Source: Schmidtea polychroa (lineage: Eukaryota). Taken from it: a DNA stretch of 64,000 nt. Both the position numbers and the translations under genes were made by a program. Shown in pieces: positions 6,431 to 53,397 of this stretch. The stretch spans positions 27,900,001 through 27,964,000 of the forward strand of contig CM097887.1 of the NCBI GenBank assembly GCA_044892525.1, given 5' to 3'. The notes beneath the pieces were generated by a model. That model saw only the letters and a list, made by a program, of their open reading frames with translations. It was not told where the DNA came from and did not search any database. Numbering within the stretch: position 1 is the first letter of the stretch; each line of letters opens with the position of its first letter.

Positions 6431-6432
6431 AT

Positions 6433-9400: not shown

Positions 9401-10050
9401 ATACTGCATTAAAATATCATATGAAGATAGTTTATTCAAGTTCTTATCATCATCTATCGAATGTGCAATTTGAAAAACACTTCCTAATACTGCGACTTGA
9501 TTTTTTGTTGTTTAGAAGAGAAAAAATATATGACATAGGAAGAAACATAGAGTTTGAAATGAATTCAACGATCTAACCAAATATAAATCAATCCAGCCGA
9601 ATTAGTTTATAGGAGGAAATTGTGCAAAGAGCGTCTTACTGTTGATCAAAAAACTAACGGAAAAGAATCAAAATACTAGATAATATCAAATCAGTTAGTG
9701 GTACAAATAAATATATACATAGATCATTCAGTGTTGATGACTAAGTACTCATCAAGGAAAATGTTAGAAATAAACAAGTCACTATATATTGTGGTGATTC
9801 TGAAATACTGGAAAAGTTCATAAAATAGTTATTTGTTAACAATTCTTGATGGTAAATTTATGAAAAATGTAGAATGGCTAAAGCCATTTAAAACAAGGGA
9901 ATGTGATGTAATTGTATTTGAATATTTGATTTCTCTTTCCCCTTATATTATATTAACCATTATAATTAAGGCGTGTTAATGCCTGCATGTTTAACTAATT
10001 ATCTTGATTGTCTGGGTCATTAGATTAATAAATGATCAATAAATTAACAA
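6433..10050 (+). mobile_element. Degenerate short-LTR Ty3/Gypsy element (LTR-gag-pol-PPT-LTR)
   Basis: Gag start MTTTLSTQELLQILPQ at 6530 is homologous to the ORF at 21887. RNase H TLDTDDSFDCIGAFLSQ near 8160, NADALSR near 8400, integrase CEICQKSK and YILAITDNFSKY near 9125-9300. PPT AAAACAAGGGAA then TGTGATGTAAT at 9902. Confidence 0.7.
8760..9045 (+). repeat. Dispersed hAT-derived fragment, inverted copy of about 48720-48930
   Basis: About 220 nt (gtttgcagatatttttt...gggtatcataaagcttgtaatgt) closely match the reverse complement of 48735-48930. Confidence 0.7.
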
Positions 10051-28370: not shown

Positions 28371-29459
28371 TGTTAGGGATAGGCCTGGAGCCTTGTTGAC
28401 AAAATAAATAAAAATTACTAAAATTAGAAATAGTATAAATAAAAATAATAAAGTATTACCAAAAATAAAAGATGGGTTTTATTAATTACTATTAATAGAA
28501 TTAAGTTGTATATAGGAATATTTGATAATACTATTACTATATATAGTAATTATAAAATTGCTATTGATATAATAAATAATTAAAATATGATATAAATACT
28601 GGTTCAAAACGAGAACCAAGGACGAGAAAATTGACGGAAAAATTGACGATAAAAGTAACGATAAAACATTGAGACAATAATTTGGGGCGAGAAACATTAA
28701 GAAGATTTTGGACGATAGAATTAACAAGAAAAGAAAACGTATTTCGGAGAGAGACGATAAATTAGTTGATTGATTTAAAGAAACGTGATCAAAGAATCAC
28801 GGTGTTTATTTTAATTAAATTCAACACAAGTCTGAGTTGTTGAAATTGGATCGCACACGAAGAAATTCCGGCTATAATTTCCAACCAATATCAATTCTAC
28901 TATAAATTGATCAGCAAATTAGTTCAGAGGGAGAAGAAATAAGAAATAAGCTAAGAGCCAAGAATATTATCGTCACAGAATTGTAAAAAGGATTGGTCTA
29001 CAACAGTGTTTGGCAATTCAGGTAGATTATATTGTCAAGGGATAAACTAGTATCCTGTTGAATAGATAAAATTAAAGCGAATACAAAGTATAGATCTTTT
29101 ACTTTAGTGTTCCCTGGGAGCCTCAAAATCATTCCCTCTTGCTTGCCCAACTCTTTAGTCATATTGCGATCGTTGTGCTACACAGGAGCCATCGATTTCT
29201 TGCAGGCTGTGGTAAACAGTAAGGATTAATAAATCCGTTTTCTTGTATTCTTTGCACATATATTATAAATATCTGTTGTAAATTATTAAATACATTTTTA
29301 TAAAAGAGAAAGGCGTTTGTTGTTAATTCAGTGATTTAAAACTCATATACGCAACCACATTAAATAACTTATTTATATTTATTTTTATTTATTTATCTTA
29401 ATTAAGTTATTGGAGTCATTTGTGTTAAGATCTGTAGTCCCCGTTTTTCGATCTTAACA
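28371..29459 (+). repeat. 5' LTR
   Basis: TGTTAGGGAT...GATCTTAACA, with TGTTA/TAACA inverted ends; no difference from the 3' LTR seen by eye. Confidence 0.97.
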
Positions 29460-29462
29460 TTT

Positions 29463-29480
29463 TGGTGAGCCCGACGTGAT
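29463..29480 (+). promoter_or_regulatory. Primer-binding site for tRNA-Trp
   Basis: TGGTGAGCCCGACGTGAT lies 3 nt after the LTR. Its reverse complement ATCACGTCGGGCTCACCA matches the vertebrate tRNA-Trp 3' end as I recall it (ATCACGTCGGGGTCACCA) at 17 of 18 positions. Confidence 0.85.
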
Positions 29481-29596
29481 ACAATTTACGGGGGAATAAG
29501 AATTTTATTTATAAAAGGCAAACATCTTTTTGAATCATTGAGTTAAGAAATAGAAGGGTAATAAATTTAAGACCAGGTAATAGAAACCAGCAAATA

Positions 29597-32398
29597 ATGG
29601 CAGAGATAAATAATTTACAAAATTTAAACGAGAATAATTTACAAAATAATAATGTGCCAATAGCTCAACCACCAGTGGTAGATTTTATGAGATACCCAAC
29701 AATTCCGATTAAACCATTTAGTGGAAACCCAGAGGAGTTTCCAGAATTTATGTCCGAATATTTTCAGTTAGCCAGAGCATTAGGATTCCCGGAACCGGTA
29801 ATGATTTTGAGATTACCTTTATATTTAAAAGGGATGGCGCGGGAAATATATAACGATGTTATAATAGCCGAGCATCCAGTTGAATGGAATGTATTACGAT
29901 TAGCGTTACAAAACAGAATATTACCGGGGGATGCAACTAGAGTGCTGAGACAACAGTTTTATAATAGGCGACAAAATTCGGGTGAGCATGTTGGGGAATT
30001 TTCATATCAAATAATGATGTTGGCAGAGAGAGCATTTGGTAATAGGGCAGCCTGGAATGATGCAACTAGAGCATTAGTAAAAGATCAGTTTTGGTCAGGG
30101 TTATCGTCAGCAATGAGAAATGCACTCAGTTTACACATAGGAGATAATTTAGAGGAATTAACTCGCAAAGCGTGTTTAATTGAAAGTAGCATTGAGAAAT
30201 CAAATAATTTTGCTATTAGTAGCAACAAGTCAGACATTGAGTGTTTTAATTGTCATAAAAAGGGACATATGTCAAAAGATTGTAAAAGTAGGAATAATTC
30301 TCCAGGGGACAAATTATGTACCAAGTGTGGGAGAAATAATCATGTGGCATCAAACTGTAGAATTTCGGACCTAAATTGTGAGAAATGCAAGCGCAAGGGA
30401 CATGTAGCGTCAGTTTGTAAAGCTAGTTTTGGGGGGAATAATTCAAATAATAATAATAGTAGAAATAGAAGCCCCGATAGGAATTTTCGTGGTAATAATA
30501 ATAATAATTTTAATAATAATATTAAAAGGGATGAAGTAAATTCGGGGGGTAAAATTAAATGTCATAAGTGTGGAAAATTTGGTCATATTATGCGTTCTTG
30601 TCCACAAAATGAGTTATCTAATAACAATGGTAGTAGTAACAATGGAAATAATCGATCGAAGCAGACAACGTTTGCAGTGAATTCAGATCACAAATTAACG
30701 TATTTGCAGCAGCTTGAATTAGAAATTCAAGAAGAGAGAAACAGGTTAGCGAGGCTAACAACAAATGAAACTGATGGGTACGATGAAAATGAAGGTGTTT
30801 ATATGACGTCAGCCAAAAGGAGGCGAAATAAAAATAATTATGTAGAACTTGAAGTGTTGATGCTTCAAGAAAGTCCACAGGAGGACAACGAGGAAAAGAC
30901 TATGGTCATAGAACCAGAAGTCTGTGAGGGTTTACAGGTTTCACCCAGGAAAAATCTAGTGGCTGTGGCCATGGAGCCAGAAGCCAACAGAGAAATAGAA
31001 GGTTTACCGGTTTCACCAGTTAAAAATCGTAAGGCTTTGGACATGGATCCAGTAGCTAATGAAATTGTTCCAACAGGAGTTTTGGAAAAAAGATGGGCTT
31101 CGGTCAGTGAACCGGAAGTTCTTATAGCCACATCATCCATGCGAGGTGAGTGTGGTAGTGAACCAATAAAGGTTCGAGAAGCATCGAAAGAGGAAAGAAA
31201 TCCCATCGATGACTGTAGAAAAATATTATTACGCAAGAGCGTATGGCAAAGAGAAATGAGACAGAAATTAGAAAACATTCGTTTAAACCCCGTTAATGAG
31301 AATGAGGTTGACAAAGTAATGGATATCATATCAGAGTTAAATAGAGATAAGGAATATTATCCAGAATTGAGAGAAATTCTGAGAAATATTGGCCTAAATT
31401 GGAAACAAAGAGAGAATCTGGAAGATTCTACAATTTTTGTATCTTTCCCAAAGGGTTGTTTTCGTAGATATACAATTAATCCAAGCGAAAAGGTAGAAGC
31501 ATTGGCAAAGAGAGTTTCTGTGGTAAAACCTCAATTGAGATGCAAATTATATTTATTGGGAGAAAAATTATTAGAGGGAGAAACCCTGTTAGATTGTGGT
31601 ATACTACCAGGGAAAAATATGGTTATAAAAGCAAAGTTTCACAAGGAAACTGTTACTGTAGTGGACTTGGATAATGTCCTTACTATAAGCGAGATTGAAA
31701 TTGATCAATTAAATCAAATATCAGCCGTACCACATAGGTTGGGAATCGAGCTGATGAAAAACCCAAGAGATGGGGAAGCCATTAAGATGATAATGGATTG
31801 GATACTGGAGTTGCGAATCCCAGTAGATACTCTTAGAGAGATAATGCCATTGATGGTGCCTTTAGTAAAAGAGACATCACAATTTCAGACACAAGCAAAG
31901 ATGCTGTTGATTAAAAATGGACATGCTATCAGACATTTGGAAGGTAGACAAGGTCCAGTGATGTTAGATATCAGGATACCCAGGAGAGGACACCTGATAC
32001 AACAATTTTCGTGTTATCATAGGGTAAAGAAACTGAGAAAAAGGATATCAGAAATATTAAAAGAGTCATTCCTAATAATGATACATGGTTGTCAGGTGGA
32101 TGACGACGAATTTCTAGTAGATGTTGGATGTTTTCCCAATGAGGAAACAGTTGTATTAATATTACTGGTAGAGTTTCCAGAGGATCAATGGGCAACTTTG
32201 AGATTGCCAGATAATGCTGAAATGGAGGATGAAACAGTACATCCTGAGCAAAATCAAGTAGACGGGAATACTCATCAGGAACCCGTAACTACAGTAGACT
32301 TAGATGAAGAGATAGATAAGTATCTCAAGGAGCTTGATAACACTGAAGACGAGTTAATCGAAATATTTCCTACAGGGAAGATAATGAAGTACAATTAA
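29597..32398 (+). CDS. gag: Extended Gag, 933 aa: capsid-like region, four CCHC zinc knuckles, C-terminal extension with two ubiquitin-like domains
   Basis: Capsid-like KPFSG-PEEF...LPLYLKG-A; knuckles CFNCHKKGHMSKDC, CTKCGRNNHVASNC, CEKCKRKGHVASVC and CHKCGKFGHIMRSC; Ubl-like segments near 31430-31640 and 31955-32175. Confidence 0.9.
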   Translation: MAEINNLQNLNENNLQNNNVPIAQPPVVDFMRYPTIPIKPFSGNPEEFPEFMSEYFQLARALGFPEPVMILRLPLYLKGMAREIYNDVIIAEHPVEWNVLRLALQNRILPGDATRVLRQQFYNRRQNSGEHVGEFSYQIMMLAERAFGNRAAWNDATRALVKDQFWSGLSSAMRNALSLHIGDNLEELTRKACLIESSIEKSNNFAISSNKSDIECFNCHKKGHMSKDCKSRNNSPGDKLCTKCGRNNHVASNCRISDLNCEKCKRKGHVASVCKASFGGNNSNNNNSRNRSPDRNFRGNNNNNFNNNIKRDEVNSGGKIKCHKCGKFGHIMRSCPQNELSNNNGSSNNGNNRSKQTTFAVNSDHKLTYLQQLELEIQEERNRLARLTTNETDGYDENEGVYMTSAKRRRNKNNYVELEVLMLQESPQEDNEEKTMVIEPEVCEGLQVSPRKNLVAVAMEPEANREIEGLPVSPVKNRKALDMDPVANEIVPTGVLEKRWASVSEPEVLIATSSMRGECGSEPIKVREASKEERNPIDDCRKILLRKSVWQREMRQKLENIRLNPVNENEVDKVMDIISELNRDKEYYPELREILRNIGLNWKQRENLEDSTIFVSFPKGCFRRYTINPSEKVEALAKRVSVVKPQLRCKLYLLGEKLLEGETLLDCGILPGKNMVIKAKFHKETVTVVDLDNVLTISEIEIDQLNQISAVPHRLGIELMKNPRDGEAIKMIMDWILELRIPVDTLREIMPLMVPLVKETSQFQTQAKMLLIKNGHAIRHLEGRQGPVMLDIRIPRRGHLIQQFSCYHRVKKLRKRISEILKESFLIMIHGCQVDDDEFLVDVGCFPNEETVVLILLVEFPEDQWATLRLPDNAEMEDETVHPEQNQVDGNTHQEPVTTVDLDEEIDKYLKELDNTEDELIEIFPTGKIMKYN

Positions 32399-32460
32399 AT
32401 CAAGATGAAACAAACATCGGAGCTAGTACATCGCGACAAGTCGAGCCACCAAGAGAAAGA

Positions 32461-35145
32461 GTGAGCCCGAAGTTAGTCGAGAATAAAAAGAAAAGAGAGA
32501 GAAGGGGTAGACCGAGGAAAAGTCAAATGAACCCACCCCCAAGAGAACTTTTAAAACCAGTTACAATTCAAAATGTAACTAAGCAGGCTTTAGCAGGGAT
32601 AGCTAGCCAAATTGATAAAAGCGTTGGAGACGCTAGTGATAAAACGGAAACATGGAAAATACTAAGTCAAATCTTACGATTGATCAAGCCTGATTGGCAA
32701 ATTAAGAAAGATAAAAGTGTTAATGTTGACAAAATTGCAGAAAAAGTCAAGAAAGCTATGGAAAAGATTCCAGGAAGCACCACGGAACAGGAGATGTTCG
32801 AAATAGCAGGGCAATTCATAGATGAAGGCCTGACGAAAGGGAAAATGATAACGATTCTAGCCTTAATGTTTAAAAATGCATTGAGCATAATTAAAGATGA
32901 TTCGTCGAAAATTCCAGCAGCCATAGACAAGCTGACTGATATCATCGAAGTGAATTTCAGAACATGGATGACTGAACATAAGTTTTGGGATATAAAAGAA
33001 ACGAAAGGAAAATATGAATTAAATGAAGAATTGTTGACAGAAAATATTTCAAGTAGTCCACGGGGAACAGGTGGATTTACTAGTTGGATGATGATGTTGT
33101 TGGTAATGATGGGAATATTGCGACAGACAAATTCCCTAACGGCATATGATTGCAGTGAACCAATATTATCGCGAATCTACTCATTAGTAGACACAGTGGA
33201 ATGCAAGGAAGCATATCCAGATAAAGTTGCAAAAAGGGAAGACGTGGAATATCATGTTTATCAGCAAACAGAGTTTTACAGAACCAGAGTGAGGGAATGT
33301 CGAATACAGAGAGCGACGTTCGAATATTACTGTGGATCGAATAGTTATTCAGCATTTTTAGGAGCTAAACTCATTCCGATACCGTTAATCATCCCACCAG
33401 AGGATTGTGTAAATGCTTTTCGGTCAAAAACAGTTAAAATAGATCATGAGGTGACAATTACCGCAGAAGAAGGGAAAAAGTTGGGTATAACTATTACCCG
33501 GGGAGGACCGATAGCAGATGATGGTTCTTGTCATGGTAGAAAGAAAGTTAGAGGTTCTAATGTAGTAAACTATGTGGTAACAGTTGAGGACTACACAGTA
33601 GAGCTGATAGAGTACGAAGGAACTTTCGAAGTATCCACGGGAAAAATGATGTCTCATCCAGAATGCAACGTGAAATATGGTTATTGTAAAACCAGTTTAG
33701 CAGTATTAACGTACCAATCAATGAGAGATTTTTGTGATTTAGGATACCTGAAAAAGGTAGTATTTTCAAGGCTAGATGGGAAAAGCTTTACGTCTCAGGA
33801 TTCACAACAAAGTGGTTGGGGAGACAAGATAGCTCACAAAACGAAAAAGGAAGTGGTACCAGAGAAAAGCACAGCAGTAGTATTAGTCTCAAAGGATTCC
33901 ACAGATGCAATTCGTTTAGTCAGAAAGAAACAGACAACAAAATGTGGTGTACCAATATTTGAAACCAACTACAAGGGAATATACTTAGCATACAAGTATG
34001 TTCCAGCAGCAGAATCATTGCATCTATCAGATATTAAAATAGCCAAGTATATCAATAATAATATTGATTTCTTGTATCATGATCTGCAGAAACAATTATT
34101 AGATGTGTATCAGGAAGTGATCCTGAACGACTGTCGTTTGAATCGGGAAATAATACGAAATAGATTAGCAATATCTATAGCTAATCCGGATTTAATAATG
34201 CCAATGTTGACAGAGGAAGGAACATTTGGTAGAATTTTGCGTGAAGCAATTTATAGTTACCAATGTAAAGCAATAGAGGTAGAAATCACCAAATATGATC
34301 GATGTACATTGGAGCTACCTGTGAAATATAAAGGAAAATTGAGATTCCTGATGCCAGTATCACACCAGTTATTAAAGGAGGATACCTCACCTTTAACTGC
34401 AATTTGCAATCCAGCAATGTCACCATTATACAAAATAAACAATATTTGGATTTCATTGCCAGACAGAAAGCCGCCTTCAAAACCAGTTGAAGTGCTTCAA
34501 GCTACAAAGTTAGAAACTAAAATGGAGTTTCAACCATTAAACGAAATGTCAAAAGGCGGAGTATATACTCCGGAAGATATAGAAGAAGCTCGGAGAGCAA
34601 TTGTGTTTCCCCAAATCAGAGATCGGGGAGTGACAGAGATAATAACAAGAATCTATCAATCATATGATGGAAAACCGGACTATAATCTATTATTTGGACC
34701 AGAACATTACAAAGAAGCTGCATCAAATGTAATACGGAAAATCTGGGGTAGATTTACAAGCTTTGGCATTTTTGTAGCAGGATGTTCAGGTATATATGCA
34801 ATAGTGATGATATTGAAAATAATTATATCGCAATTATTTTCCACCTATAGTATCTTCAAGATCGGGGGATGGTCTTGGAAGTTGCTGTTAGGAATGTGTC
34901 CAGTTTGTGCAGATTTTGCAGTATTTCATCATCATAATAAAGAGATTAAGAGAATGAAGAGGCAAACTATAAAGAAACATGAGTTAATAATGTATGAACC
35001 TAGTCATCGAGACGATGACAATTCTGACGAGGGAGGTAACCTAGAGGGCTATGAGACCTCAGACAACACCTCAATAAAACCAGACAACAAAAAACCGAAA
35101 TTTCAAAATTTTGAAAATAGTACTTTACAAACAGTACCCTGTTAA
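32461..35145 (+). CDS. env: Envelope polyprotein: N-terminal Bcl-2-like domain, internal signal peptide, chuvirus/gB-like fusion glycoprotein, TM anchor (frame open from 32347; first ATG 32527)
   Basis: Hydrophobic WMMMLLVMMGILRQTNS then LTAYDC; cysteine pattern YYCG-S, GSC-G, C-G-C, CG-PI-ETN, YQC-I-V, C-LELPV-Y, GGVYTPE, WG-FT-FG; TM near 34760-34840. Confidence 0.85.
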   Translation: MSPKLVENKKKRERRGRPRKSQMNPPPRELLKPVTIQNVTKQALAGIASQIDKSVGDASDKTETWKILSQILRLIKPDWQIKKDKSVNVDKIAEKVKKAMEKIPGSTTEQEMFEIAGQFIDEGLTKGKMITILALMFKNALSIIKDDSSKIPAAIDKLTDIIEVNFRTWMTEHKFWDIKETKGKYELNEELLTENISSSPRGTGGFTSWMMMLLVMMGILRQTNSLTAYDCSEPILSRIYSLVDTVECKEAYPDKVAKREDVEYHVYQQTEFYRTRVRECRIQRATFEYYCGSNSYSAFLGAKLIPIPLIIPPEDCVNAFRSKTVKIDHEVTITAEEGKKLGITITRGGPIADDGSCHGRKKVRGSNVVNYVVTVEDYTVELIEYEGTFEVSTGKMMSHPECNVKYGYCKTSLAVLTYQSMRDFCDLGYLKKVVFSRLDGKSFTSQDSQQSGWGDKIAHKTKKEVVPEKSTAVVLVSKDSTDAIRLVRKKQTTKCGVPIFETNYKGIYLAYKYVPAAESLHLSDIKIAKYINNNIDFLYHDLQKQLLDVYQEVILNDCRLNREIIRNRLAISIANPDLIMPMLTEEGTFGRILREAIYSYQCKAIEVEITKYDRCTLELPVKYKGKLRFLMPVSHQLLKEDTSPLTAICNPAMSPLYKINNIWISLPDRKPPSKPVEVLQATKLETKMEFQPLNEMSKGGVYTPEDIEEARRAIVFPQIRDRGVTEIITRIYQSYDGKPDYNLLFGPEHYKEAASNVIRKIWGRFTSFGIFVAGCSGIYAIVMILKIIISQLFSTYSIFKIGGWSWKLLLGMCPVCADFAVFHHHNKEIKRMKRQTIKKHELIMYEPSHRDDDNSDEGGNLEGYETSDNTSIKPDNKKPKFQNFENSTLQTVPC

Positions 35146-36268
35146 AGCAAAAAGGAGGAAAAGGCAGGAGTGGCCTGTAAATTATTTGTCACCATACGAG
35201 GGTAGAAAAAAGATAATACCAGAACGAGTCGAAGAGGAAATGTTAAAGAGGTTCGAGTTCAGAACAAATACAGATATATTACCATCTACCTCATACCCAA
35301 CGTATAAAATGAAGTTCGAGACAATGCCACCCTTGGGTACATCAGTATTAGAGATGGTACCAAAATATCCATTCAGCACGTTGGAACGGCTAAAGGAAGA
35401 GTATAAAGATGAAATAAAATCAGAAAATGACAAGGATAGTGATGATCAACAAAAGTTCAGAGACAATATTCGAGGAATCTCAACAATATTAATGGTCAAT
35501 ATGGGTAAAAAGACTCATAAACCTACGATTAAATTAAAAGTTAACAGGCATACGGTACATGCCATTATTGATTCAGGATCAGATTTGACTTTGATTGAAG
35601 CAAATTTATTAAACGAAAAAGAATTACAAGCAATAGTGCCGACATTAACTGTTGCATCAGGAGCAAATGGACAACCTATCAATGTTATCGGAACATTAGA
35701 TTGTGAATTAAGGTTGTGTGATCAAAAATTTAGACACGATATCAAAGTCACTAGACAATGTATGGCAGAACGTATCGTGGGAATAGATATATTGAAAAAG
35801 TTAAAAGATATTGTATTCGATTGTGCAACAGGCGAATTAGTAAAAATGACGGGTAGAAAACGGGAAACCTACAGTGTGGATGTAGTGTTTTTGGGTAGAA
35901 CGGTGAAAATACCACCGAGGACCGAAACAGTTTGTTTTGTAGCAACACACCAAGAGGTGGAAGGAGATGTTATTTTCAAACCAAGTGAGCAGTTCGTAAA
36001 TAGGTATAAAACACCTATGGTGCAAAACTTGGCAACAGTACGGGGAGGAAGAATCCCGATTAGATTAACGAATCTAGCAAGCAAATCATTGAGATTATAC
36101 CCAGAGACTAGAGTGGGTAAAGTGATACAACTATCTAACATGCAGAAAGAGTCTGAATCGATATTATCAGTAGAAGAGGATGAACGAGATCCTGATATCG
36201 AATATTACGACGCACCGAGCTGCGATAGTAAAACCTTATCTAGAAAGGAAAACATCAGAGTTAACTAA
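35111..36268 (+). CDS. pro: Aspartic protease region of Pol (frame open from 35078; first ATG 35240), ending in an in-frame TAA
   Basis: VHAIIDSGSDLTLI active site and IVGIDIL motif; same frame as the RT ORF, separated by a single TAA (36266-68). Confidence 0.9.
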   Translation: MKIVLYKQYPVKAKRRKRQEWPVNYLSPYEGRKKIIPERVEEEMLKRFEFRTNTDILPSTSYPTYKMKFETMPPLGTSVLEMVPKYPFSTLERLKEEYKDEIKSENDKDSDDQQKFRDNIRGISTILMVNMGKKTHKPTIKLKVNRHTVHAIIDSGSDLTLIEANLLNEKELQAIVPTLTVASGANGQPINVIGTLDCELRLCDQKFRHDIKVTRQCMAERIVGIDILKKLKDIVFDCATGELVKMTGRKRETYSVDVVFLGRTVKIPPRTETVCFVATHQEVEGDVIFKPSEQFVNRYKTPMVQNLATVRGGRIPIRLTNLASKSLRLYPETRVGKVIQLSNMQKESESILSVEEDERDPDIEYYDAPSCDSKTLSRKENIRVN

Positions 36269-39200
36269 TTGTTACGTAAATATGACCAAATTTTCGCAAA
36301 ACACGAGTATGACTTAGGGCAAGTTAATATTTTAGAGCATGAAATTAAATTAACAGAAAATAAACCGATAAAAATACGCCCGTACAGAATACCTCAAAGT
36401 ATACAAGGGTCCGTTGATAAACAAATTAAATTAATGCAAAAATACAATATAATCAGACCCAGTAAATCTCCATATTCCTCACCTTTGGTGGTTGTAGCTA
36501 AAAGAGACGGCTCAGTTAGATTATGCAATGACTATAGGAAATTAAATGAACAAACAGTTAGTGATAATCACCCGCTACCTTTGCTAGATTACATTTATGA
36601 TAAAATGAAAAATTCAAAGTTGTTTACTGTGATGGATGCACAGAAAGGCTTTTACCAAATAAAGATGAGCGAAGACTCAATTCCTATGACAGGATTTTCT
36701 ACAAGTAGTGATCATTTCGAATATTTAGTAATGCCGTTTGGATTAAAAGGAGCCCCTCCAACTTTCCAGAGGGCAATGAATATCATGTTGATGGATGCAC
36801 ATCACGCAATGGTATATATAGACAACATTATCATCTTCTCGGAAGACTTAGATAAACATTTGGATCATCTGGAGGACATTTTCAAAAGAATAATTATGGC
36901 AAACCTGAAAGTAAAGCCAAGCAAATGCAAATGGGCAGAATCGGAAGTGATTTACGTAGGGCATGTAATATCACACGATTGCGTAAGACCAGATCCGGCT
37001 AACACGGATAAAGTAAAGAATTTCCCACAACCAGTGAATGTGAAACAAATCAAAGGATTTTTAGGGTTAACGGGATATTACCGGAAATTTATACGAAACT
37101 TTTCAGCAATTGCTTTTCCTCTAACTACCTTAGAAAAGAAAGGTATAAAATTTTTATGGGGAGAGGATCAGCAACAGGCATTTGACAAGTTAAAAGATGC
37201 ACTATGCAAACCACCAATTTTACGATTTCCAGATTTTAGAAGACAATTCATGGTGATGACCGATGCATGTACAAGAGGTATAGGTGCAGTTTTGGGGCAG
37301 AAAGATGAAATTGGTGATGAGTACGCAGTAGCATATGCAAGTCGTGGATTGAAGCCACACGAGAAAAGTTATGCTGTAATAGAATTGGAAGCATTAGCAT
37401 TAGTATTTGCAGTGGAAAAATTTAGTCATTACCTATGGGGCAGAAAGGTAATTTTCTATACAGATCATAGACCCTTGCAATGGCTGTTAAAACATAGAGA
37501 CGAAGCATCAAAATTAGTAAGATGGGCATTGAGATTACAGCCATATAATATCGAAATTGTATATCGTAAAGGTAAAGCTAATGGTAATGCAGATGCATTA
37601 TCACGAATGGAGCAAGAGCCTGAGTTAGAAGATATAAAGGAAGGAAGATTAGAAGGAACTATCTTCATGCTAACAAGAGAGGCTAACACTTTGAGCGATT
37701 TAGTAGAAGCACAGAAAAATGATGACGAAATCAATATGATCAGACAAGCCATAGAAGCAAAGGCCATACCAAATGAATTTCAGAAATATTGGGAGAAACA
37801 TAAAGATAAATTCATATTGGAAGAAGGTCTAATCAAATATGTGGAATCAAGAGATAATGTAATTTTAGTGCCAAAGAAATACAGAGAATCACTATTATTA
37901 CAATACCACGATGGAGCACTGGGAGGACATCTCTCAGCTAGACATACATTGTCAAGATTGAAAATGAAATACTTTTGGCCGAATATGAAAGATGATGTTA
38001 AAAAGTGGTGTCAATCGTGTAAGATATGTATAACCAGAAGGAACACAGGTAGGAAACCACATGTTCCATTAAAACCAATGCCAGTACCGTCCTCGCCATT
38101 GGAGATGACCGCTATGGATGTACTAGGGCCGTTTAAAGAATCAAAGATGGGAAATAAATTTATCATAGTATTTTGTGACTACTTAACGAAGTGGCCCGAA
38201 GCATTTCCAATTCCGAATCATAAGGCAGACACAATTGCCAGAATTTTTGTAGAACAAATTGTATTTAGATATGGTGTTCCGACAAAATTGCTTACAGACA
38301 GAGGAAAGGATTGCATGAGTAATTTGTTAAAAAGTATTAATGATTATTTTGGTATTTTAAAATTAAATACCTCACCATACCACTCACAGACGGATGGATT
38401 GGTAGAGAGGTTCAATGGAACCTTGGCAAACATGTTATCATCATACGTAAACTCAGGTCAGACGGACTGGGATGTACACATACCATCATGTTTGTTTGCG
38501 TATAGAAATGCTGTTCATTCAGTAACAGGAGAAACACCTTTCTATCTGATGTATTTAAGGCATAGCAAGATGCCAGCGGATCTTATATTTTATCCAAAAG
38601 CATCACAGAACTGTGATGAGGGAAACTACTTATTCGAGATGAGAGAAAGAATGCAAGAAGCCTGGAAGAAAGCAGGTTTGAACATTCGTTATAACCAAGA
38701 AACAATGAAGGAATATCATGATCGTAAAGCGAAAGATCATGGGTTTTTGGTAGGAGATTATGTCATGTTAGAAGGACATTACAACAAAAAAGGTTTATCT
38801 CCTAAATTAATGAGAAATTACAAAGGGCCGTTTCAAATTTTGAAAGTCACAGAAACCAATTTAGTCTTACAGTTAGTGGCAAACAGAAAAGCAGAACCGA
38901 TAATGGTTCATGCAAACAGATGTAAAAAGATAGCCCCACCAGAAAAGGAGAAACCAAAATCAGAAATTGATGAATTCGAAATAGATAAGAAATCGAAAAA
39001 GAAAACGTTAGAATCATATAAAAGTATCCTAAAGGGACAACCAGAACGATACCCTTTACGATCTCGGCAAATCCCGAAAACAGTTACATTTTTAGCAGTG
39101 ATTAGCTGTGTTATGATGATGGGACAGGCATTCGAGGTATTCACACCTAAAGCCAGTCAACATCCAGATATCGAATATCAACGAACAGATAGAGCATTCA

Positions 39201-40057
39201 GATTTCATTTAACGAATATACAATGGCATAGATATGATCTATATTTGGTAGCTGCTGAAAGAGGGATATCTTTTCACTTGAATACATGGGATCGAGTGAA
39301 AGTAATAGAGGGACTTATGCCGAATACAAGTTATCTATTAGAAATCAAGACATTCTTTGCAGACCCAAACGTTTTTGCAGATGGAGGAGATTGTGTAGAT
39401 AAAGCAGCATGGATTTTGAAGACTGCAAAATTTACCAAAAAAGTAGAGATTTCATATCTCGGGCAGATAGTTAGATTTACTCATCCACGGTGGAACAGAA
39501 ATGATACATCTTCCACTCACGATTGGAGGACGAATAATAAAATTGCGTTAATTGTCATATTAGAAGACGACCAGCGAGTCGAGAGATTAGTGCTCAACCA
39601 TGCGTATCTAAGTAGAAGATGGAAAATCAAACCAGATACCGTGACAAAGGCGAACATTTCGTATTTGGAATTTACGGAGAGAACCGGTTGGTATACAATA
39701 TATCAAGAAATAATAAATCTAATACCTCCCACAAGAGGAGAACTAACTAGCAAAGAAGGAAAGGCTAGATTAGTGAATATTCCTGGTTGTAAAGGAATAA
39801 ATGCTTTAGATTGGTTTAGTATTAGAAAGGTAGCGAGTGTAAAACAGCCCCGCATAACTAAAAAAATTAATAATTGTAGTTGTCAAAATACGTTAAAGGG
39901 GGCAGCGAGGGTGAAAACGCCAACATGGCTAATGTTAATTATGATAGGGGGAGTAATTTGCATGATTTTAATTTTGCTCTTAACCACCCTATGGATGTTT
40001 AGATTAAATATACGAGATATGCGTTATTGGGAAAATATTTACGAAACCGAGGTATAG
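36269..40057 (+). CDS. pol: RT - RNase H - integrase, with C-terminal signal-like/FN3-like/TM extension; RT active site reads YIDN
   Basis: LCNDYRKLN, MPFGLKGAP, YIDN; TDACTRGIGAVL, ELEALA, YTDHRPL, NADALSR; HHCC finger, MDVLGP, LTDRG, VERFN; TM WLMLIMIGGVICMILILLLTTLWMF. Confidence 0.95.
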   Translation: MLRKYDQIFAKHEYDLGQVNILEHEIKLTENKPIKIRPYRIPQSIQGSVDKQIKLMQKYNIIRPSKSPYSSPLVVVAKRDGSVRLCNDYRKLNEQTVSDNHPLPLLDYIYDKMKNSKLFTVMDAQKGFYQIKMSEDSIPMTGFSTSSDHFEYLVMPFGLKGAPPTFQRAMNIMLMDAHHAMVYIDNIIIFSEDLDKHLDHLEDIFKRIIMANLKVKPSKCKWAESEVIYVGHVISHDCVRPDPANTDKVKNFPQPVNVKQIKGFLGLTGYYRKFIRNFSAIAFPLTTLEKKGIKFLWGEDQQQAFDKLKDALCKPPILRFPDFRRQFMVMTDACTRGIGAVLGQKDEIGDEYAVAYASRGLKPHEKSYAVIELEALALVFAVEKFSHYLWGRKVIFYTDHRPLQWLLKHRDEASKLVRWALRLQPYNIEIVYRKGKANGNADALSRMEQEPELEDIKEGRLEGTIFMLTREANTLSDLVEAQKNDDEINMIRQAIEAKAIPNEFQKYWEKHKDKFILEEGLIKYVESRDNVILVPKKYRESLLLQYHDGALGGHLSARHTLSRLKMKYFWPNMKDDVKKWCQSCKICITRRNTGRKPHVPLKPMPVPSSPLEMTAMDVLGPFKESKMGNKFIIVFCDYLTKWPEAFPIPNHKADTIARIFVEQIVFRYGVPTKLLTDRGKDCMSNLLKSINDYFGILKLNTSPYHSQTDGLVERFNGTLANMLSSYVNSGQTDWDVHIPSCLFAYRNAVHSVTGETPFYLMYLRHSKMPADLIFYPKASQNCDEGNYLFEMRERMQEAWKKAGLNIRYNQETMKEYHDRKAKDHGFLVGDYVMLEGHYNKKGLSPKLMRNYKGPFQILKVTETNLVLQLVANRKAEPIMVHANRCKKIAPPEKEKPKSEIDEFEIDKKSKKKTLESYKSILKGQPERYPLRSRQIPKTVTFLAVISCVMMMGQAFEVFTPKASQHPDIEYQRTDRAFRFHLTNIQWHRYDLYLVAAERGISFHLNTWDRVKVIEGLMPNTSYLLEIKTFFADPNVFADGGDCVDKAAWILKTAKFTKKVEISYLGQIVRFTHPRWNRNDTSSTHDWRTNNKIALIVILEDDQRVERLVLNHAYLSRRWKIKPDTVTKANISYLEFTERTGWYTIYQEIINLIPPTRGELTSKEGKARLVNIPGCKGINALDWFSIRKVASVKQPRITKKINNCSCQNTLKGAARVKTPTWLMLIMIGGVICMILILLLTTLWMFRLNIRDMRYWENIYETEV

Positions 40058-40263
40058 GGGGAAAGTCTCACCATATACTAGGAAGTGTAAATATATATAG
40101 TTATTTATTTTATATATATATGTTATTTATATTAGTATGTAGACTAATGTGGGCTCAAATGAGCATTGGTAAAATCAGACATCAGCGTATGTCGACTTTG
40201 GTTACCCTGCGAGGGTCTATCACGAAAGTGATAAAAGCTGTTAATTATTTTATTTTTAGAAAA

Positions 40264-41055
40264 ATGAATTATAACAGAGAATCAAAGCCGCCAGTCAAAG
40301 CAAATCGACGACACCCATTGGCAACGTACAATTCCCAAACTCGAGTTGAAACTGAAGTGTATAGCACCTATAAAGAAGAGTATGTATATCGGTTCATCGG
40401 AACCACGGTCGCAGCAAAAATGAATCACCTCACCTCAAACTATTGGTATTATCCCAGGAGAGTGGATATTCCAAACGACTTCAAATTTCCAGGAGGGCCT
40501 CGAAGGCAAATGATGGTAACGGTTATAAATAACCAAGGTAGATTAAAATTGGCGGAACTATGTAGAGAGTATGGTTCATGTCCGAAAATAGAAAACTTGT
40601 GGATTCATGCGATCAATAGGCCATTCACGGTGTTTATGGCGGGATTAGAGTTACCTGTTGAATTAGAAAAACAGTGTACTCTGGAGATATACCACGCTGA
40701 TGGACGAGAACGGAATATTATGATCCAGGCAGCGGCGGTGGACACCATAATCGCAATAGAAATCTTAGACTTCAGGAAGCCATACTCTATAGTTAGCAAA
40801 AACGAGCCAACTTGGATTTATAATGTAAATGAAGACGATATACGGCAGTGTAAATCATTTGTGAGGAAGAAGTTATCCAAAGCCGAGGAGAACGAGGCTA
40901 CAATTTTCATATCGGCAGGTTTTGCCAAATCCCGAATCGAATTGAAGGAGACAATTATCCAAATCGCAATTATGGATATGAGAGGAAATAATTTATTGAG
41001 TGCGGTAGTGACTCCCAGAGATCCAGTAAAACATTACCAAAACGCACCAATATAA
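40264..41055 (+). CDS. 3' accessory ORF (263 aa from ATG 40264); C-terminus resembles the start of a DEDDh exonuclease fold
   Basis: Splice acceptor ttattttatttttag ends at 40259, 5 nt before the ATG; IIQIAIMDMRGNNLLSAVVTPRDPVKHY. Confidence 0.6.
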   Translation: MNYNRESKPPVKANRRHPLATYNSQTRVETEVYSTYKEEYVYRFIGTTVAAKMNHLTSNYWYYPRRVDIPNDFKFPGGPRRQMMVTVINNQGRLKLAELCREYGSCPKIENLWIHAINRPFTVFMAGLELPVELEKQCTLEIYHADGRERNIMIQAAAVDTIIAIEILDFRKPYSIVSKNEPTWIYNVNEDDIRQCKSFVRKKLSKAEENEATIFISAGFAKSRIELKETIIQIAIMDMRGNNLLSAVVTPRDPVKHYQNAPI

Positions 41056-41060
41056 GTTAA

Positions 41061-42272
41061 AAGAACCCGACATTAGAGGAAATTTTGCTTAAGGATCTGA
41101 TCTCGGTAGCCAATCTACCAGTGCAGCGAATATTGGGTATTCGTGACCTTTCGGCAAATAAACTATTGGAAACCAGAGGAGTCCCAAAGATTCATGGTCA
41201 TTACAGATTGGGATTCCTGACAAAAACTTTCCTGCGTACGTTTCCCGGAGAACCAAGAAATTTAGTGGTCACCAATGAGGCACTGGCAATACGTGCTGTT
41301 TATTTACATATCAGGAACGAATGGTTAGACCATATCACGATTCCCCAGGAGGAATTCATTTCAGCAACTACAGCAGCGATAGTTGAACAGGAAATGACGC
41401 AGAAGAGGAGATTACCTGAGCAACCATCTACATCTGAGCAACCCCAACCTAAGAGGAAATCACCTGTGGATCTACCACCGCCTCCAGCTATATCTATTGG
41501 AGAAGAAGATGAATATGAAACATGTGCTAGTGAGATAGAGACAGCAAAATCACCTAAACAATCATCGGGAGCTGCCTATCAGCCAAAGAATAAATCGGAT
41601 AATGCGGTCAGAAAAGAAAATCCAGAAGGGGGCAAGGTGAAAAAGATGTTAAAGAAAATGTTACCCATAAAAAGAGACAAGTCGAAGTTAAAGTTGAAGA
41701 AAGTTGTTAAACCGTCGGAAGGAACGACAAAAGAGACACCCAGCAGTTCGGAAGATAGGACTATTAAACCTCAAAAGATATTCAGCGAACCAGATGATGA
41801 CATTATGGAAGTTGCCTTTCAACCTCCGGTTAAGGAGATGCAGGAAGCAATAAAGGTTAAATCTGAACCTGTGGTAAGGCAGAAATTGTTAAAGATTGCC
41901 AAGGAGAATATCATCAAGAAACCAGTTTCGGTTGATGTGGACGGTTTCGAACCAATGTGGTACAAACGTCCGGATAGTAAATGGAAACCCAGAGCGAAGG
42001 AGTATGACTGCCAACCAGTCACGAGAATGGCAGTCAATAATAATCAAAAATATGATGTTTATGACGTAGACGGGATCCCTTACGTGGTGTCTACAGTCAT
42101 ATTAACGAGTGCTCTGGATGGTAAGCCTTTGGCAGTGAGTTTTGAGCCAGAAGTCTTACAGAAGAGGAAAAAGAAGTTGCTGCAGCAATACGTCGTTGCC
42201 AATAGCTACAGCACGAAGGAGTTGCACCTTTACAAAGTTCCCGACCCAGATCCCGATGATCTGGATATCTAA
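41061..42272 (+). CDS. 3' accessory ORF (about 400 aa): exonuclease-like N-terminus, charged disordered middle, unknown C-terminal domain; probably once continuous with the preceding ORF
   Basis: Frame open from 41061 (KNPTLEEI...ILGIRDLS...RLGFLTKTFL...TNEALAIRAVY); 1.2-kb ORF inside the element. Confidence 0.6.
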   Translation, partial: KNPTLEEILLKDLISVANLPVQRILGIRDLSANKLLETRGVPKIHGHYRLGFLTKTFLRTFPGEPRNLVVTNEALAIRAVYLHIRNEWLDHITIPQEEFISATTAAIVEQEMTQKRRLPEQPSTSEQPQPKRKSPVDLPPPPAISIGEEDEYETCASEIETAKSPKQSSGAAYQPKNKSDNAVRKENPEGGKVKKMLKKMLPIKRDKSKLKLKKVVKPSEGTTKETPSSSEDRTIKPQKIFSEPDDDIMEVAFQPPVKEMQEAIKVKSEPVVRQKLLKIAKENIIKKPVSVDVDGFEPMWYKRPDSKWKPRAKEYDCQPVTRMAVNNNQKYDVYDVDGIPYVVSTVILTSALDGKPLAVSFEPEVLQKRKKKLLQQYVVANSYSTKELHLYKVPDPDPDDLDI

Positions 42273-42500
42273 TCCAAGAGCGTTGCCACCCAACATGTGT
42301 CGTCGAATTCAGAATGTGTATAAAAGGACTTAACTATTATTTGATTTGTGCTATCCAGTGTTTTGACATTCATTATTTGTGATCTAAAACATTAATTTTG
42401 TGTTTTTTCTTATTTGATTAATTTTTATGTTTTTATTGTAATACTGTTTACCAAAAGCCTTCTTTAGTCTTGCTTTTATCTTGTTTTCGAGACGAAAATC

Positions 42501-42517
42501 TTTTAGGGGGTAAGACT
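42501..42517 (+). promoter_or_regulatory. Polypurine tract
   Basis: ttttAGGGGGTAAGAct immediately before the 3' LTR TG. Confidence 0.8.
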
Positions 42518-43606
42518 TGTTAGGGATAGGCCTGGAGCCTTGTTGACAAAATAAATAAAAATTACTAAAATTAGAAATAGTATAAATAAAAATAATAAAG
42601 TATTACCAAAAATAAAAGATGGGTTTTATTAATTACTATTAATAGAATTAAGTTGTATATAGGAATATTTGATAATACTATTACTATATATAGTAATTAT
42701 AAAATTGCTATTGATATAATAAATAATTAAAATATGATATAAATACTGGTTCAAAACGAGAACCAAGGACGAGAAAATTGACGGAAAAATTGACGATAAA
42801 AGTAACGATAAAACATTGAGACAATAATTTGGGGCGAGAAACATTAAGAAGATTTTGGACGATAGAATTAACAAGAAAAGAAAACGTATTTCGGAGAGAG
42901 ACGATAAATTAGTTGATTGATTTAAAGAAACGTGATCAAAGAATCACGGTGTTTATTTTAATTAAATTCAACACAAGTCTGAGTTGTTGAAATTGGATCG
43001 CACACGAAGAAATTCCGGCTATAATTTCCAACCAATATCAATTCTACTATAAATTGATCAGCAAATTAGTTCAGAGGGAGAAGAAATAAGAAATAAGCTA
43101 AGAGCCAAGAATATTATCGTCACAGAATTGTAAAAAGGATTGGTCTACAACAGTGTTTGGCAATTCAGGTAGATTATATTGTCAAGGGATAAACTAGTAT
43201 CCTGTTGAATAGATAAAATTAAAGCGAATACAAAGTATAGATCTTTTACTTTAGTGTTCCCTGGGAGCCTCAAAATCATTCCCTCTTGCTTGCCCAACTC
43301 TTTAGTCATATTGCGATCGTTGTGCTACACAGGAGCCATCGATTTCTTGCAGGCTGTGGTAAACAGTAAGGATTAATAAATCCGTTTTCTTGTATTCTTT
43401 GCACATATATTATAAATATCTGTTGTAAATTATTAAATACATTTTTATAAAAGAGAAAGGCGTTTGTTGTTAATTCAGTGATTTAAAACTCATATACGCA
43501 ACCACATTAAATAACTTATTTATATTTATTTTTATTTATTTATCTTAATTAAGTTATTGGAGTCATTTGTGTTAAGATCTGTAGTCCCCGTTTTTCGATC
43601 TTAACA
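42518..43606 (+). repeat. 3' LTR
   Basis: Same length and apparently the same sequence as 28371-29459; followed by the TSD CTTA. Confidence 0.97.
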
Positions 43607-44004
43607 CTTATATAAATAATTTTATCGTCATACATTAAAACTATTAAAACACATTGGCGAATAATTTAATAAATTTTATTTTCTTTCTCTCAACCACCTT
43701 ATCGGTGCATTGGGAGACAATTCTTCTCGAAAATGAAAATATTGCCTCTATTCAACATGTGTATAAAAATTTTGCAAAAACTGCAATGTTAAATGAAGGT
43801 TAAACATGAAATTTTTGAGGTCCACAGAATCTCAAACCGATGATTTTTTATATATAACTAAGTCGACACTGGTTAATAAATTTTATTGATATTACAAATA
43901 CAAAATGGTTACCTGATAAAAATATTAAAGTTTCTTTTGTTTATTTTCGTATAATATTGTTGGGTATTTTGTACAAGCCGGTATCACTGTCTGACTCTTT
44001 GGTG

Positions 44005-46725
44005 CGGGGCGAAGCCAGGAATTCATGAGGAGGGCTGCCCAAAAATCTTTTTGAATCATAAAATTTTAACATTTATTTCAAAAATTTTAACTTTTACATA
44101 ATTCATACATTTATTTTGATTCTACGAGCAGATTTTGACATTTCAATCAAAACTTCTTCGATCTCAATTGACTCATCTCTATAAATATTTAATAAAACTA
44201 ATCCATTTAAGCGATCCTCAGTCATAGTAGCACGGTCAAAAGTTTTGATTAAATGAAATTTACTAAAGCTTCTTTCAAGCGTACAATTTGTAACCGGAAG
44301 GGCTACTAGTATTGAAAGCAACTTTAAAACGTTCGGAAAAAATGTACTATTACAAGACTTAATATGATCGATTATTGAATTTGATAATCTCAAATTCCAC
44401 ATTTTAATTTCTTACCTTAATTGAGTTGCTGAAGCTTGCAATTAGTCACCAAAGTCCAAAATATCATCAATAGCTTTCGCAATTTCTTCTTCAGCAATAA
44501 TGTTATGGTTAGTAATGATTCGAAATCCTGTCAAAATTTCTTTATGCTTTTGAAATCTTTCCTCAGGTTCGCTGCAGAAATTACTAATAAGCGGTTTGAA
44601 TAAAATATTATGATAATATTCTTTTGTGCTTAAAATAAAAATACGTGGTCTTCCACAAAATCTCGGTTTTCGAATATCAATTTCATATTTTTCAGCAATT
44701 TTTGTTGCATCCGAATATATCGCATCAAACTTGTTTGATAAATCTCCCTCAATTTCCTTGAATGTGTAAATAATATACGATGATGCTCCTATAGCTTGTG
44801 TTATGCCGATTGAAACTGGTTGTAAATATCTGTTAAGTCATACAGTAATGTTCAGCGTATAGTCAAGCCACAATAAAGACATTATAAATTCAAATGTAAG
44901 AATCGTATTCAAGAATCCAATTGCTAAATGTGAAGCATCATCATTCCATTCAACAATGCTCTGTAAGTCACACAACTCCATCGAAAAGTTCAGTGAAAGT
45001 TGCAGTAGTTTGATGGCGTCCTATAAATCGTTTAGGACATATATTTTTAACTTCTTTTTTGTGCTTTCTGGAGATTTTTCTGCATTGCTTTCTAAATGAA
45101 CTTGCTGACGCTTTGATGTATTAAAAAAGTTGAAAATTTGCTTAATTGTCTCAGTACAGCTTTTAAGATAGGCAATATTACACGAATCTCTCAATGCCAA
45201 ATTAAGACAGTGACTCAAGCAATGAATGTAGATAGCACTTGGAAAACTATCTCTAATTCGTCTTGCAACGCCTGATTTCTCTCCTGCCCTAAGAGTCGCT
45301 TCATCATATACCTGATCGACACAGAAGCTCTAATCTACATTAAGTTCTTGAAAAGTTCTCATTATCTCTGATGATATTCCATCGGCGGTTTTATAGATTA
45401 TTGGAACAAATTTTGAAAAGTCTTAAAAAAGCTTAAAAGCTTAATCGAAATCGAAGTAACGCACTCCAATAGCCAATTGTTCTTTGTTAGTTCTATCCGA
45501 AGTTTATCAGCGTAAACTGAGAAAAATGAAGACTTTTTTAATTTAGCTATTCGACTTTTTTGATAATAACTTTTTCAATTATTGAGATAATTTCGTTTTG
45601 AATCGTAGGACTCAGATAAAATGCATTTTTTGGACCATTTTGTGCTAGTTCGTTAAATTCCTTATCCAAATGTGCTCGCCATCGAAGGAGGACTCGTAAA
45701 TTTCCATCATTTACACTGTTATCTGTTGAAATTAATGAGCCTGAATCGTATTTTCAACGAAACGAAATGTTATGACGACCACATAAAATAATAGATTCTA
45801 TGATTGGATATAACAATAAGTGATTCTTCTGCTTTTCCAAATTCAATTCTTTTTTATTTATCATATTAATTGGCTGAGTTTTTCCTTCCGACATAGACCT
45901 TAGAGATGTTACAATAGCTACAGTTTTCATATGAGAAGCAGTGCTTTGATGATGTGTAAAATTTTCCGAACTTTTATGCCAATTTTTGAAACCCACCGAA
46001 ACCACATTTCGATATTCCTCGCGTTCAAAAATGTAGCAAAATTTACAAAAAGCACTATCTGTAGACTTTGAATAAGCCAACCATGGAAAAGTTTTAAACC
46101 TAATCCACTGAAATTTTCGATCCTTCCGTGTATAGTTGTCTGTGGATAGTTGTATGAATAATCCGGGTTTTCGATCATATTGATTGCATTGATTTTTTCA
46201 TCATCGCTCAGTGATGTATCATTTTGATAAAATCTAATGTCACCAGATAGTACATTACTTGATCGATTCGATGTCTCCCTAGTTGCTGATAGACTTTGAG
46301 TTGTATCTCTAGTGACTGGTAGACTTTGAGTTGTATCTCCAGTTTCTGCTTGAATAGGTGTTTCTGATTTTGCCTCATTCGCGACGTAACTATTGTCATT
46401 ATTATTGTACTCATCAATTCCATCCGTTGTCTTTTTTATTTTCGTAAAATAGTTAAGAATAGATATATCTTTATTTCTCTTCATTTTATTTCTAGAATAT
46501 ATTAAGTTATTCTTTACATGAACGTTTAAAAATGATTTGATTCGATTTACTTACCTTTAATTAATGATCAATTCAATTAAATCAATTTTATTGGTTGAAT
46601 TTATTTTTTAAAAAATTTATAAACAATATGTTTAATTCAAAAAAATTAAAACCGTTAAAACTTGTATTAAATACCAATCAAGAGGGGGGTGCCCGAGCAT
46701 GTAAGACCCCCTGGCTACGCCCTTG
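44005..46725 (-). mobile_element. hAT DNA transposon (ZMYM1/THAP12-like transposase, decayed), 2.7 kb
   Basis: Imperfect TIRs CGGGGCGAAGCCAGG / CCTGGCTACGCCCTTG; 8-bp TSD CTTTGGTG / CCTTGGTG; TTF-finger YSKSTDSAFCKFC, HCLSHCLNLAL, LPVTNCTLERSFSK...MTEDRLNGLVLLNI. Confidence 0.9.
44103..46484 (-). pseudogene. hAT transposase pseudogene (several stops and frameshifts)
   Basis: ORF pieces 45927-46484, 45754-46080, 45021-45218 and 44103-44402 are colinear parts of one transposase. Confidence 0.88.
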
Positions 46726-53392: not shown

Positions 53393-53397
53393 TTTTG

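Follow-up and report, generated by a model that had tools for sequence, protein, structure and literature searches.

We describe a second membrane protein, here named X, at the end of the Pol reading frame of a young gag-env-pol Ty3/gypsy retrotransposon in the planarian Schmidtea polychroa. The element occupies positions 28371-43606 of a stretch of 64,000 nucleotides (assembly GCA_044892525.1, contig CM097887.1, 27,900,001-27,964,000), which is called the window in the following and whose positions are used throughout. X is region 39083-40057, the in-frame end of Pol, and is predicted from its sequence to be a type I membrane protein having an internal signal peptide, two fibronectin type III (FN3) domains, a stalk, a transmembrane (TM) helix and a cytoplasmic tail of 19 amino acids. 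Its most constant feature is a class I PDZ-binding motif at the C-terminus. We see an even chance that two things hold together: that X is the last unit of one Gag-Env-Pol-X polyprotein, and that it is an adhesion and membrane-targeting helper which concentrates particles at cell-cell contacts while the envelope protein (Env) fuses. The layout of such elements has already been published; the second FN3/PDZ membrane protein appears to be undescribed.

An open reading frame (ORF) of 1,262 amino acids, 36269-40057, contains the motif RYPLRSR from position 39047, a hydrophobic stretch starting with VTFLAV from 39083 and an FN3-like motif from 39302. The integrase frame continues for 324 codons past RYPLRSR until the stop at 40057. 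An earlier note on this DNA had proposed that a membrane protein is fused in frame to the integrase C-terminus, and the genomic copies bear this out: the register after the integrase tail is kept in 29 of 30 close copies, 27 of the 30 have no stop in X, and in subfamily B, which is 62% identical, the register is kept in 9 of 11 copies, the remaining two being deleted or truncated. Contigs of one run, the kind of which was guessed and which cannot show transcription or splicing, held no supported splice joint into X over this region.

The topology was derived from hydropathy, flanking charge, conservation and the (-3,-1) signal cleavage pattern as seen by eye. The two most hydrophobic segments of the 1,262-residue frame are the TM helix (Kyte-Doolittle value of 2.96 for 19 residues) and the signal-like stretch (2.48 for 13 residues and 1.77 for 19). 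A hydrophobic segment equivalent to the signal was present in all 22 relatives with a complete X, and positive charge followed the TM helix in 14 of 15 rows. A type I surface protein, as the earlier note had supposed, is thereby predicted. The same note had held that the region does not resemble a fusogen; this agrees with the predicted FN3 fold, found in place of a fusion-protein fold, and with the absence of an R-x-K/R-R site from X. Its TM segment with a short tail was also recovered, but the motif ETEV at the end of the tail had been overlooked.

The structure of X was modelled with AlphaFold using an alignment of 14 natural sequences, drawn from six families and two database proteins. The model consists of two beta-sandwiches (pLDDT 79.4, pTM 0.65). 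A Foldseek search of it against the PDB gave 279 chains at E<=0.001, the top ones being the tandem FN3 domains of fibronectin 12-14, Tie2, NCAM and neogenin. In VIA the best match was fibronectin 9-10, with a Z-score of 9.7 and, over 169 residues, a root-mean-square deviation (rmsd) of 4.2 A; taken separately, each of the two domains fits single FN3 domains at Z ~8. The model thus resembles the seven-stranded beta-sandwich of the FN3 fold (Foldseek E 1e-06, VIA Z 8-9.7), and the ectodomain is predicted to consist of two FN3 domains; the FN3-like, beta-rich character noticed earlier stands, whereas a single domain does not.

Sequence searches were less informative. Pfam has no family for X, the cut-off of PF00041 was not reached, and the relatives matched FN3 models only at E 0.21-0.69. 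With X alone as the query, a word-based search through 5.8 billion proteins gave 917 candidates, restricted to lengths of 178-567, and none of them was a relative. When the X profile was compared with 1.84 billion representatives two matches were obtained, one being a protein with five FN3 domains (E 2.3e-06 over 34 positions); the other, a repeat protein, was judged spurious. No PDB entry matched the profile of X, or Env, by sequence. The ESM Atlas gave FN3-type clusters at 0.75-0.77, which is under the reliable range and serves as a lead only. No host parent of X was found among the 1.84 billion representatives, and in the host genome copies of the element fill the scored candidates. The ectodomain has an isoelectric point of at least 8.6 in 17 of the 22 relatives, a hint of heparan-sulfate binding for which an AT-rich lysine bias is also possible.

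The C-terminal residues ETEV follow, by sequence, the definition of a class I PDZ-binding motif, S/T-x-hydrophobic at a free C-terminus (PMC4810129). Among the 22 relatives whose X is complete, 19 end in the pattern [ST]-x-[VIL]-COOH, two others have class III termini and one belongs to neither class. As a control, 64 more distant Pol proteins were used: one carried a class I motif and none had a TM segment after the integrase, the chance expectation from composition being about 0.02. The last four residues are ETEV in subfamilies A and B, MSQL in family C, ETRL in D, ETWV in E, ETFV in F and ATLV in a Burro-type copy. Selection has kept the motif, whereas the remainder of the tail ranges in length from about 20 to 130 residues. 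A tyrosine motif, ENIYE, overlaps it in subfamilies A and B only and is not found clade-wide. PPxY, a retroviral late-domain and WW-binding motif, lies ahead of the PDZ motif in the tail of family D (L047) and is present in P0012 too. ENIYE is described as a kinase/SH2 motif in Chlamydia Tarp (in passages of PMC3593179). For the type 1 human T-cell leukemia virus (HTLV-1), the relevant passages of PMC4810129 state that the class I motif of Env binds DLG1 and aids cell-to-cell fusion at cell contacts, and that viral class I motifs commonly disturb DLG1, SCRIB and MAGI.

The ratio of nonsynonymous to synonymous substitution (dN/dS) was computed against one subfamily-B copy. It was 0.236 for X (dS ~1.1), 0.053 for the Env ectodomain and 0.03 for the integrase (400 codons), so X is under purifying selection yet changes faster than the fusogen; in the same copy pair X is 62% and Env 92% identical. 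Within X the ratio was 0.12 for domain 1, 0.26 for domain 2, 0.58 for the stalk, 0.24 for the TM helix and 0.14 for the tail. Domain 1 is accordingly the most conserved part of the ectodomain and the stalk the fastest-changing, and the last 10 residues are identical between the copies in spite of the synonymous divergence. The possibility that the 62% subfamily carries a swapped X cassette was rejected because synonymous divergence is similar in the integrase (0.9) and in X (1.1).

When Env and the divergent X proteins were used as queries, the genome yielded families C, D, E and F, four further families having single frames of 3,334-3,437 amino acids. Env is 62% identical to that of the window in family C and 39-42% in D, E and F. 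All four run past the integrase into a signal, a beta-rich ectodomain, a TM segment and a short tail; the conservation in sister elements that the earlier note had set as a check extends beyond the close copies. The X of family C is 27% identical to that of the window (E ~1e-18 in a database of 19 sequences), and in D-F the protein is built of three domains. Another copy, giant and Burro-type with MATH, env and ankyrin, which was found via its BIR-bearing neighbour ORF, likewise ends in a signal-like stretch, a beta-rich region, a TM segment and a class I motif.

Outside the host genome 76 Pol relatives were examined, and the TM extension was present in 9 of the 12 closest and in none of the other 64. 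Of 34 metagenome loci all 7 closest have the extension, and both of those reaching far enough upstream (2/2) contain the fusogen as well, in the same frame; fusogen and X also occur in the same element in the families of the host genome. L081, the next relative after the X-bearing metagenome loci, differs from them: its env is of F type, stands apart and takes the classical position. In a quick tree of the integrase with 67 rows, built without rows P0041-P0078, loci L098-L107 and short or stop-containing matches, the X-bearing elements group in a single clade (26 rows, of which 24 have X), supported by an SH-like approximate likelihood ratio test (SH-aLRT) value of 97. Across the relatives the ectodomain ranges from 105 to 392 amino acids, and domain number and apparently type vary.

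Several relatives have features of their own. The X proteins of P0012 and L078 have a class III-type C-terminus and a short ectodomain, rich in cysteine and not FN3-like in appearance, which points to an apparent replacement of the ectodomain. An extra internal signal/FN3-like/TM unit is seen between Env and protease in L079 (residues ~1580-1780 of frame 2-10279) and P0010 (residues 45-235), and these two would consequently make a third membrane protein. A second aspartic-protease-like domain, which could cut the integrase free, lies after the integrase and before X in P0006, P0009, P0013, L075, L076 and L078; P0013 also has ankyrin repeats. A motif of the type R-Y-x-L-R follows the integrase C-terminal domain in the families of the host genome; of 19 relatives from elsewhere that were inspected, most have it too. 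This motif presumably resembles the chromatin-binding motif of foamy-virus Gag and could be a nucleosome tether for the integrase.

A possible mechanism starts from the four strong hydrophobic segments that hydropathy identifies in the polyprotein: Env signal, Env TM, X signal and X TM. By the parity of four crossings Gag and Pol are predicted to be cytosolic, and the ectodomains of Env and X to be in the lumen of the endoplasmic reticulum. Cleavage by host signal peptidase would detach X from the integrase and Env from what precedes it on the Gag side, and the single frame would yield one X per Env. As the Env tail continues into the protease, X would have the sole free C-terminus of the polyprotein, where no additional cleavage is needed for a PDZ motif to act; hence X would carry the PDZ sorting signal, possibly taking the role that the motif of HTLV-1 Env plays on Env's own tail. 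The FN3 domains may recognise a ligand displayed on the surface of the adjacent cell, acting either from the surface of the producer cell or from the particle. X would then gather assembly at cell-cell contacts and grip the neighbour, and Env would fuse. The variable length and domain number of the ectodomain and the fast-changing stalk are easier to reconcile with a loose helper than with a rigid subunit that does the triggering. Planarian Gypsy elements are reported, in passages of PMC8532177, to be derepressed in differentiated tissues more than in neoblasts, and spread between cells would therefore be useful to the element.

More tentatively, and with rather less than even confidence, we extend this to a two-protein entry system of the whole clade, Burro included, in which a class III fusogen is joined by an FN3 adhesion receptor captured into the env slot, the PDZ tail builds a virological synapse and the swappable, fast-changing ectodomain sets which cells, stem or germ, are entered by each family. 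Such a system, with both parts cut from one polyprotein, would be unlike any described for retroelement entry. Should X prove to be a helper of the kind outlined above, attachment-plus-fusion entry and cell-to-cell spread with PDZ guidance would have arisen in retroelements separately from vertebrate retroviruses, and the passage of elements from differentiated planarian cells to the stem cells that transmit them would be explained. The polyprotein would be a precursor spanning the membrane four times, Pol being held there at either end, which is more flavivirus-like than retroviral. X offers direct tests in a tractable animal, namely its location, the partners of its tail and those of its ectodomain.

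A number of observations weigh against the helper reading and the polyprotein on which it is built. The hydrophobic core of the X signal is short, and a weaker second hydrophobic stretch after the Env TM bears on the topology of the polyprotein. The VIA Z-scores, being under 10, are middling. An initial AlphaFold model from a shallow alignment of 8 close sequences was poor (pLDDT 41), its Foldseek matches being already FN3 at E 0.006 or weaker, and in the better alignment the window group and the three-domain group are joined by a weak hhalign link (E 5e-4, probability 32%). An FN3 fold is no proof of adhesion, as cytokine receptors and poxvirus proteins are among the structural matches, and the integrin ligand motif RGD was not found in 21 of 22 X ectodomains. 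Two clade members, P0006 and P0007, have no recognisable X and a third, P0011, has no motif. Because the relatives share ancestry, the 19 of 22 count reflects retention and not independent origins. Finally, the window copy is broken upstream and its X-containing frame is cut off from gag and env, so this copy is unlikely to make X via the polyprotein.

Much of the same evidence can be read in other ways. X could be an attachment subunit of the particle which docks onto a specific receptor and both touches the class III fusogen and triggers it, in the way that gD and gH/gL act on gB in herpesviruses; this corresponds to the receptor-binding partner of the fusogen, and the two-component envelope, that the earlier note had put forward. 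We consider this rather unlikely, although X and Env would be made one-to-one from one frame, are linked wherever this can be tested, and differ in rate in the expected direction, X changing faster than the fusogen as attachment proteins often do. The passages of the survey PMC13524379 that call entry of gB-type elements unknown, herpes simplex virus (HSV) needing further glycoproteins, also leave room for such a subunit. What speaks against it is that an ectodomain of such variable length and domain number, with the non-FN3-like form of P0012 and L078, sits beside a conserved Env, that the stalk is the least constrained part of X, and that the PDZ tail would be left unexplained. Moreover, some class III fusogens, such as the G protein of vesicular stomatitis virus (VSV) and GP64, attach and fuse alone.

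X might instead act on the infected cell as a host-modulating receptor mimic, being either a decoy for immune or growth ligands or a competitor of PDZ/SH2 scaffolds that alters polarity or survival. This we judge unlikely. It would match the other cargo of these elements (Bcl-2-like, MATH/TRAF, exonuclease), apoptosis and ubiquitin cargo is described for Burro in PMC6431247, and tandem FN3 is the cytokine-receptor fold as well, with IFNAR1, IL-10R2, tissue factor and the poxvirus proteins CPXV202 and LS008 among the structural matches. The Tarp-like ENIYE (PMC3593179, in part) and the perturbation of DLG1, SCRIB and MAGI by viral class I motifs (passages of PMC4810129) point the same way. But only subfamilies A and B have ENIYE, cytokine receptors score no better than FN3 pairs of adhesion and matrix proteins and in part lower, and synthesis one-to-one with structural proteins suits assembly or spread. 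The earlier note had named a host-receptor mimic as one option; fold and tail agree with it, but the search of representatives mentioned above yielded no host parent. An action within the producer cell seems very unlikely, X being there a second anchor that holds Pol at the budding membrane or sorts the polyprotein, or a block to re-infection, with the FN3 domains as spacers. The signal fixes the integrase end to the membrane by construction, TM and tail are constant while the ectodomain is exchangeable, and L079 and P0010 have their extra unit between Env and protease; yet the dN/dS of domain 1 is tighter than a spacer requires, and a folded, glycosylatable ectodomain has been retained clade-wide. 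That X is a non-functional read-through or chance capture is hardly credible: the lack of a Pfam family, of a word-search relative and of a PDB match by sequence would suit it, but it is contradicted by purifying selection, intact frames, a confidently predicted fold and the clade-wide architecture. 

Elements with GAG-ENV-POL order and HSV/gB-type env, called 'errantiviruses', have been surveyed in Platyhelminthes, Nematoda and Bryozoa (Chary and Hayashi, eLife 2026, PMC13524379). Like those described in its passages, the window element has a Ty3/gypsy Pol and a class III-type env between gag and pol, and is multi-copy and young. Among six Smed rows the env of Smed_errantivirus_4 looks closest to that of the window, by eye only, and is not identical. 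The survey text differs in that the passages available name no second membrane protein after the integrase and contain no occurrence of 'fibronectin'. X, absent from these passages, is a concrete clade-wide candidate for a helper in gB-type entry.

Burro/GYPSM1 are giant gypsy-like planarian elements in which gag, env and pol follow one another in frame within one giant ORF (Arkhipova and Yushenova 2019, PMC6431247, Burro section). The window family shares this arrangement and, like Burro, has Bcl-2-like cargo, which in the window is a weakly matched segment. The same integrase clade holds the window element and the Burro-type copy with the class I motif terminus. In contrast to Burro (>30 kb; MATH, BIR, ankyrin), the window element is 15.2 kb long including long terminal repeats (LTRs) and Pfam finds none of those domains. 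It is thus a relative of Burro, not a Burro. The Burro section lists no terminal membrane protein.

X and HTLV-1 Env are both retroelement membrane proteins with a C-terminal class I PDZ motif, which in HTLV-1 is tied to cell-to-cell spread; the motif there is on the fusogen itself, whereas here it is on a separate FN3 protein (PMC4810129, in part). The tail of X ends in TEV like that of HTLV-1 Tax in the same passages, and no homology is claimed. For the MDG1-group retrotransposons of Drosophila, passages of PMC11952523 link the accessory transmembrane protein sORF2 to direct cell-to-cell transfer. sORF2 is a short fusogen-like replacement of Env, whereas X would be a 308-residue FN3 protein additional to Env and cut from the polyprotein. 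By its predicted tandem FN3 fold X is like animal FN3 proteins (fibronectin, NCAM, neogenin/DCC, Tie2, receptor phosphatases, class II cytokine receptors), unlike which it has no Ig or enzyme domain, and identity in structural alignments is mostly 5-20%. Type I topology and a PDZ tail are common among animal FN3 adhesion and receptor proteins. A literature search, with subscription journals and Repbase outside its reach, found no description of X.

The features of X and of the element are listed in Table 1. The element has LTRs, a target-site duplication and the order protease, reverse transcriptase (RT), RNase H, integrase, and is a young Ty3/gypsy element; both LTRs are 1,089 bp and identical over their whole length. 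Along the element Pfam recognises the zinc knuckles of Gag, then a fusion glycoprotein of Monjiviricetes type (PF24664, E 8.7e-80) and after it protease, RT, RNase H and integrase, so that a class III/gB-like env sits between zinc knuckles and protease.

Table 1. Positions of X and of the other parts of the element in the window.
Feature	Position	Strand	Basis or remark
5' LTR, TG...CA, 1,089 bp	28371..29459	+	identical to 3' LTR; 4-bp duplication CTTA precedes
Primer-binding-site-like stretch, begins TGG	29463..29480	+	just inside 5' LTR, from sequence; presumably tRNA-Trp-like
Gag with CCHC zinc knuckles and accessory spacer	29534..32398	+	PF00098 E 3.7e-13; frame terminates here in window copy
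Frame with weak Bcl-2-like segment, Env signal, fusogen ectodomain, Env TM	32347..35145	+	Pfam, hydropathy
Weak Bcl-2-like segment	~32629-33006	+	Bcl-2 family matches only at E 0.04-1
Internal Env signal	~33082-33135	+	hydropathy
Class III-type fusogen ectodomain (Env)	33136-34695	+	PF24664 E 8.7e-80
Env TM	~34771-34827	+	hydropathy
Aspartic protease frame	35078..36268	+	PF00077 E 6.5e-08; ended by in-frame stop in window copy
RT, RNase H, integrase	36269..39082	+	Pfam; closed by basic RYPLRSR motif at 39047-39067
X internal signal peptide	39083..39130	+	hydropathy; hydrophobic core of 13 residues; cleavage predicted to follow GQA
X FN3 domain 1, membrane-distal (predicted)	39131..39421	+	single FN3 domains Z 8.3-8.9, rmsd ~3 A
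X FN3-like domain 2 (predicted)	39422..39727	+	CD45 d3-d4 Z 8.1 on model residues 103-199
X basic stalk, three cysteines	39728..39919	+	45% identity, dN/dS 0.58
X transmembrane helix	39920..39997	+	hydropathy
X cytoplasmic tail, 19 amino acids, then stop	39998..40057	+	ETEV-COOH class I PDZ-binding motif, overlapped by ENIYE
Second ORF, exonuclease-like, two frames in window copy	40003..42272	+	position-equivalent ORF of relatives matches PF00929
3' LTR	42518..43606	+	followed by target-site duplication CTTA

Two frame changes, at about 32.4 kb and 35.1 kb, together with a stop at ~36.27 kb split the coding region of the window copy into four frames. A single frame of 3,513-3,516 amino acids was found in 11 of 124 genome matches of the element family; the uninterrupted ORF is thus a property of the family and not of this broken copy. 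Its LTRs are identical in spite of the several coding breaks, and its X differs by 2-3% from the nearest sisters. Either the copy was mobilised in trans from a defective parent, or assembly errors have altered it.

The ORF at the position of the second ORF matches PF00929 (RNase_T) in the relatives L079 (E 1.4e-05) and L074 (E 0.0033); the window's own pieces gave no Pfam match. The first acidic catalytic motif is present in families E and F and replaced in A and C, which suggests an inactive form in the latter two. For the Bcl-2-like segment, BOK and avipox Bcl-2 were matched at E 0.04, and engineered spike helical constructs score better.

Elsewhere in the genome, a tandem array on contig C3 (106.49-107.23 Mb) is made of a ~2.9-kb unit from a piece of the element and holds dozens of copies of the 3' half of X. 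On contig C2 (100.87-100.91 Mb) three full-frame copies (L011-L013) stand head to tail, 14,218 bases apart, and probably share LTRs. At 43900-46550 (minus strand) and 53350-55000 of the window there are hAT-type transposase-like fragments, seen by eye immediately downstream of the element, and an extremely AT-rich minisatellite.

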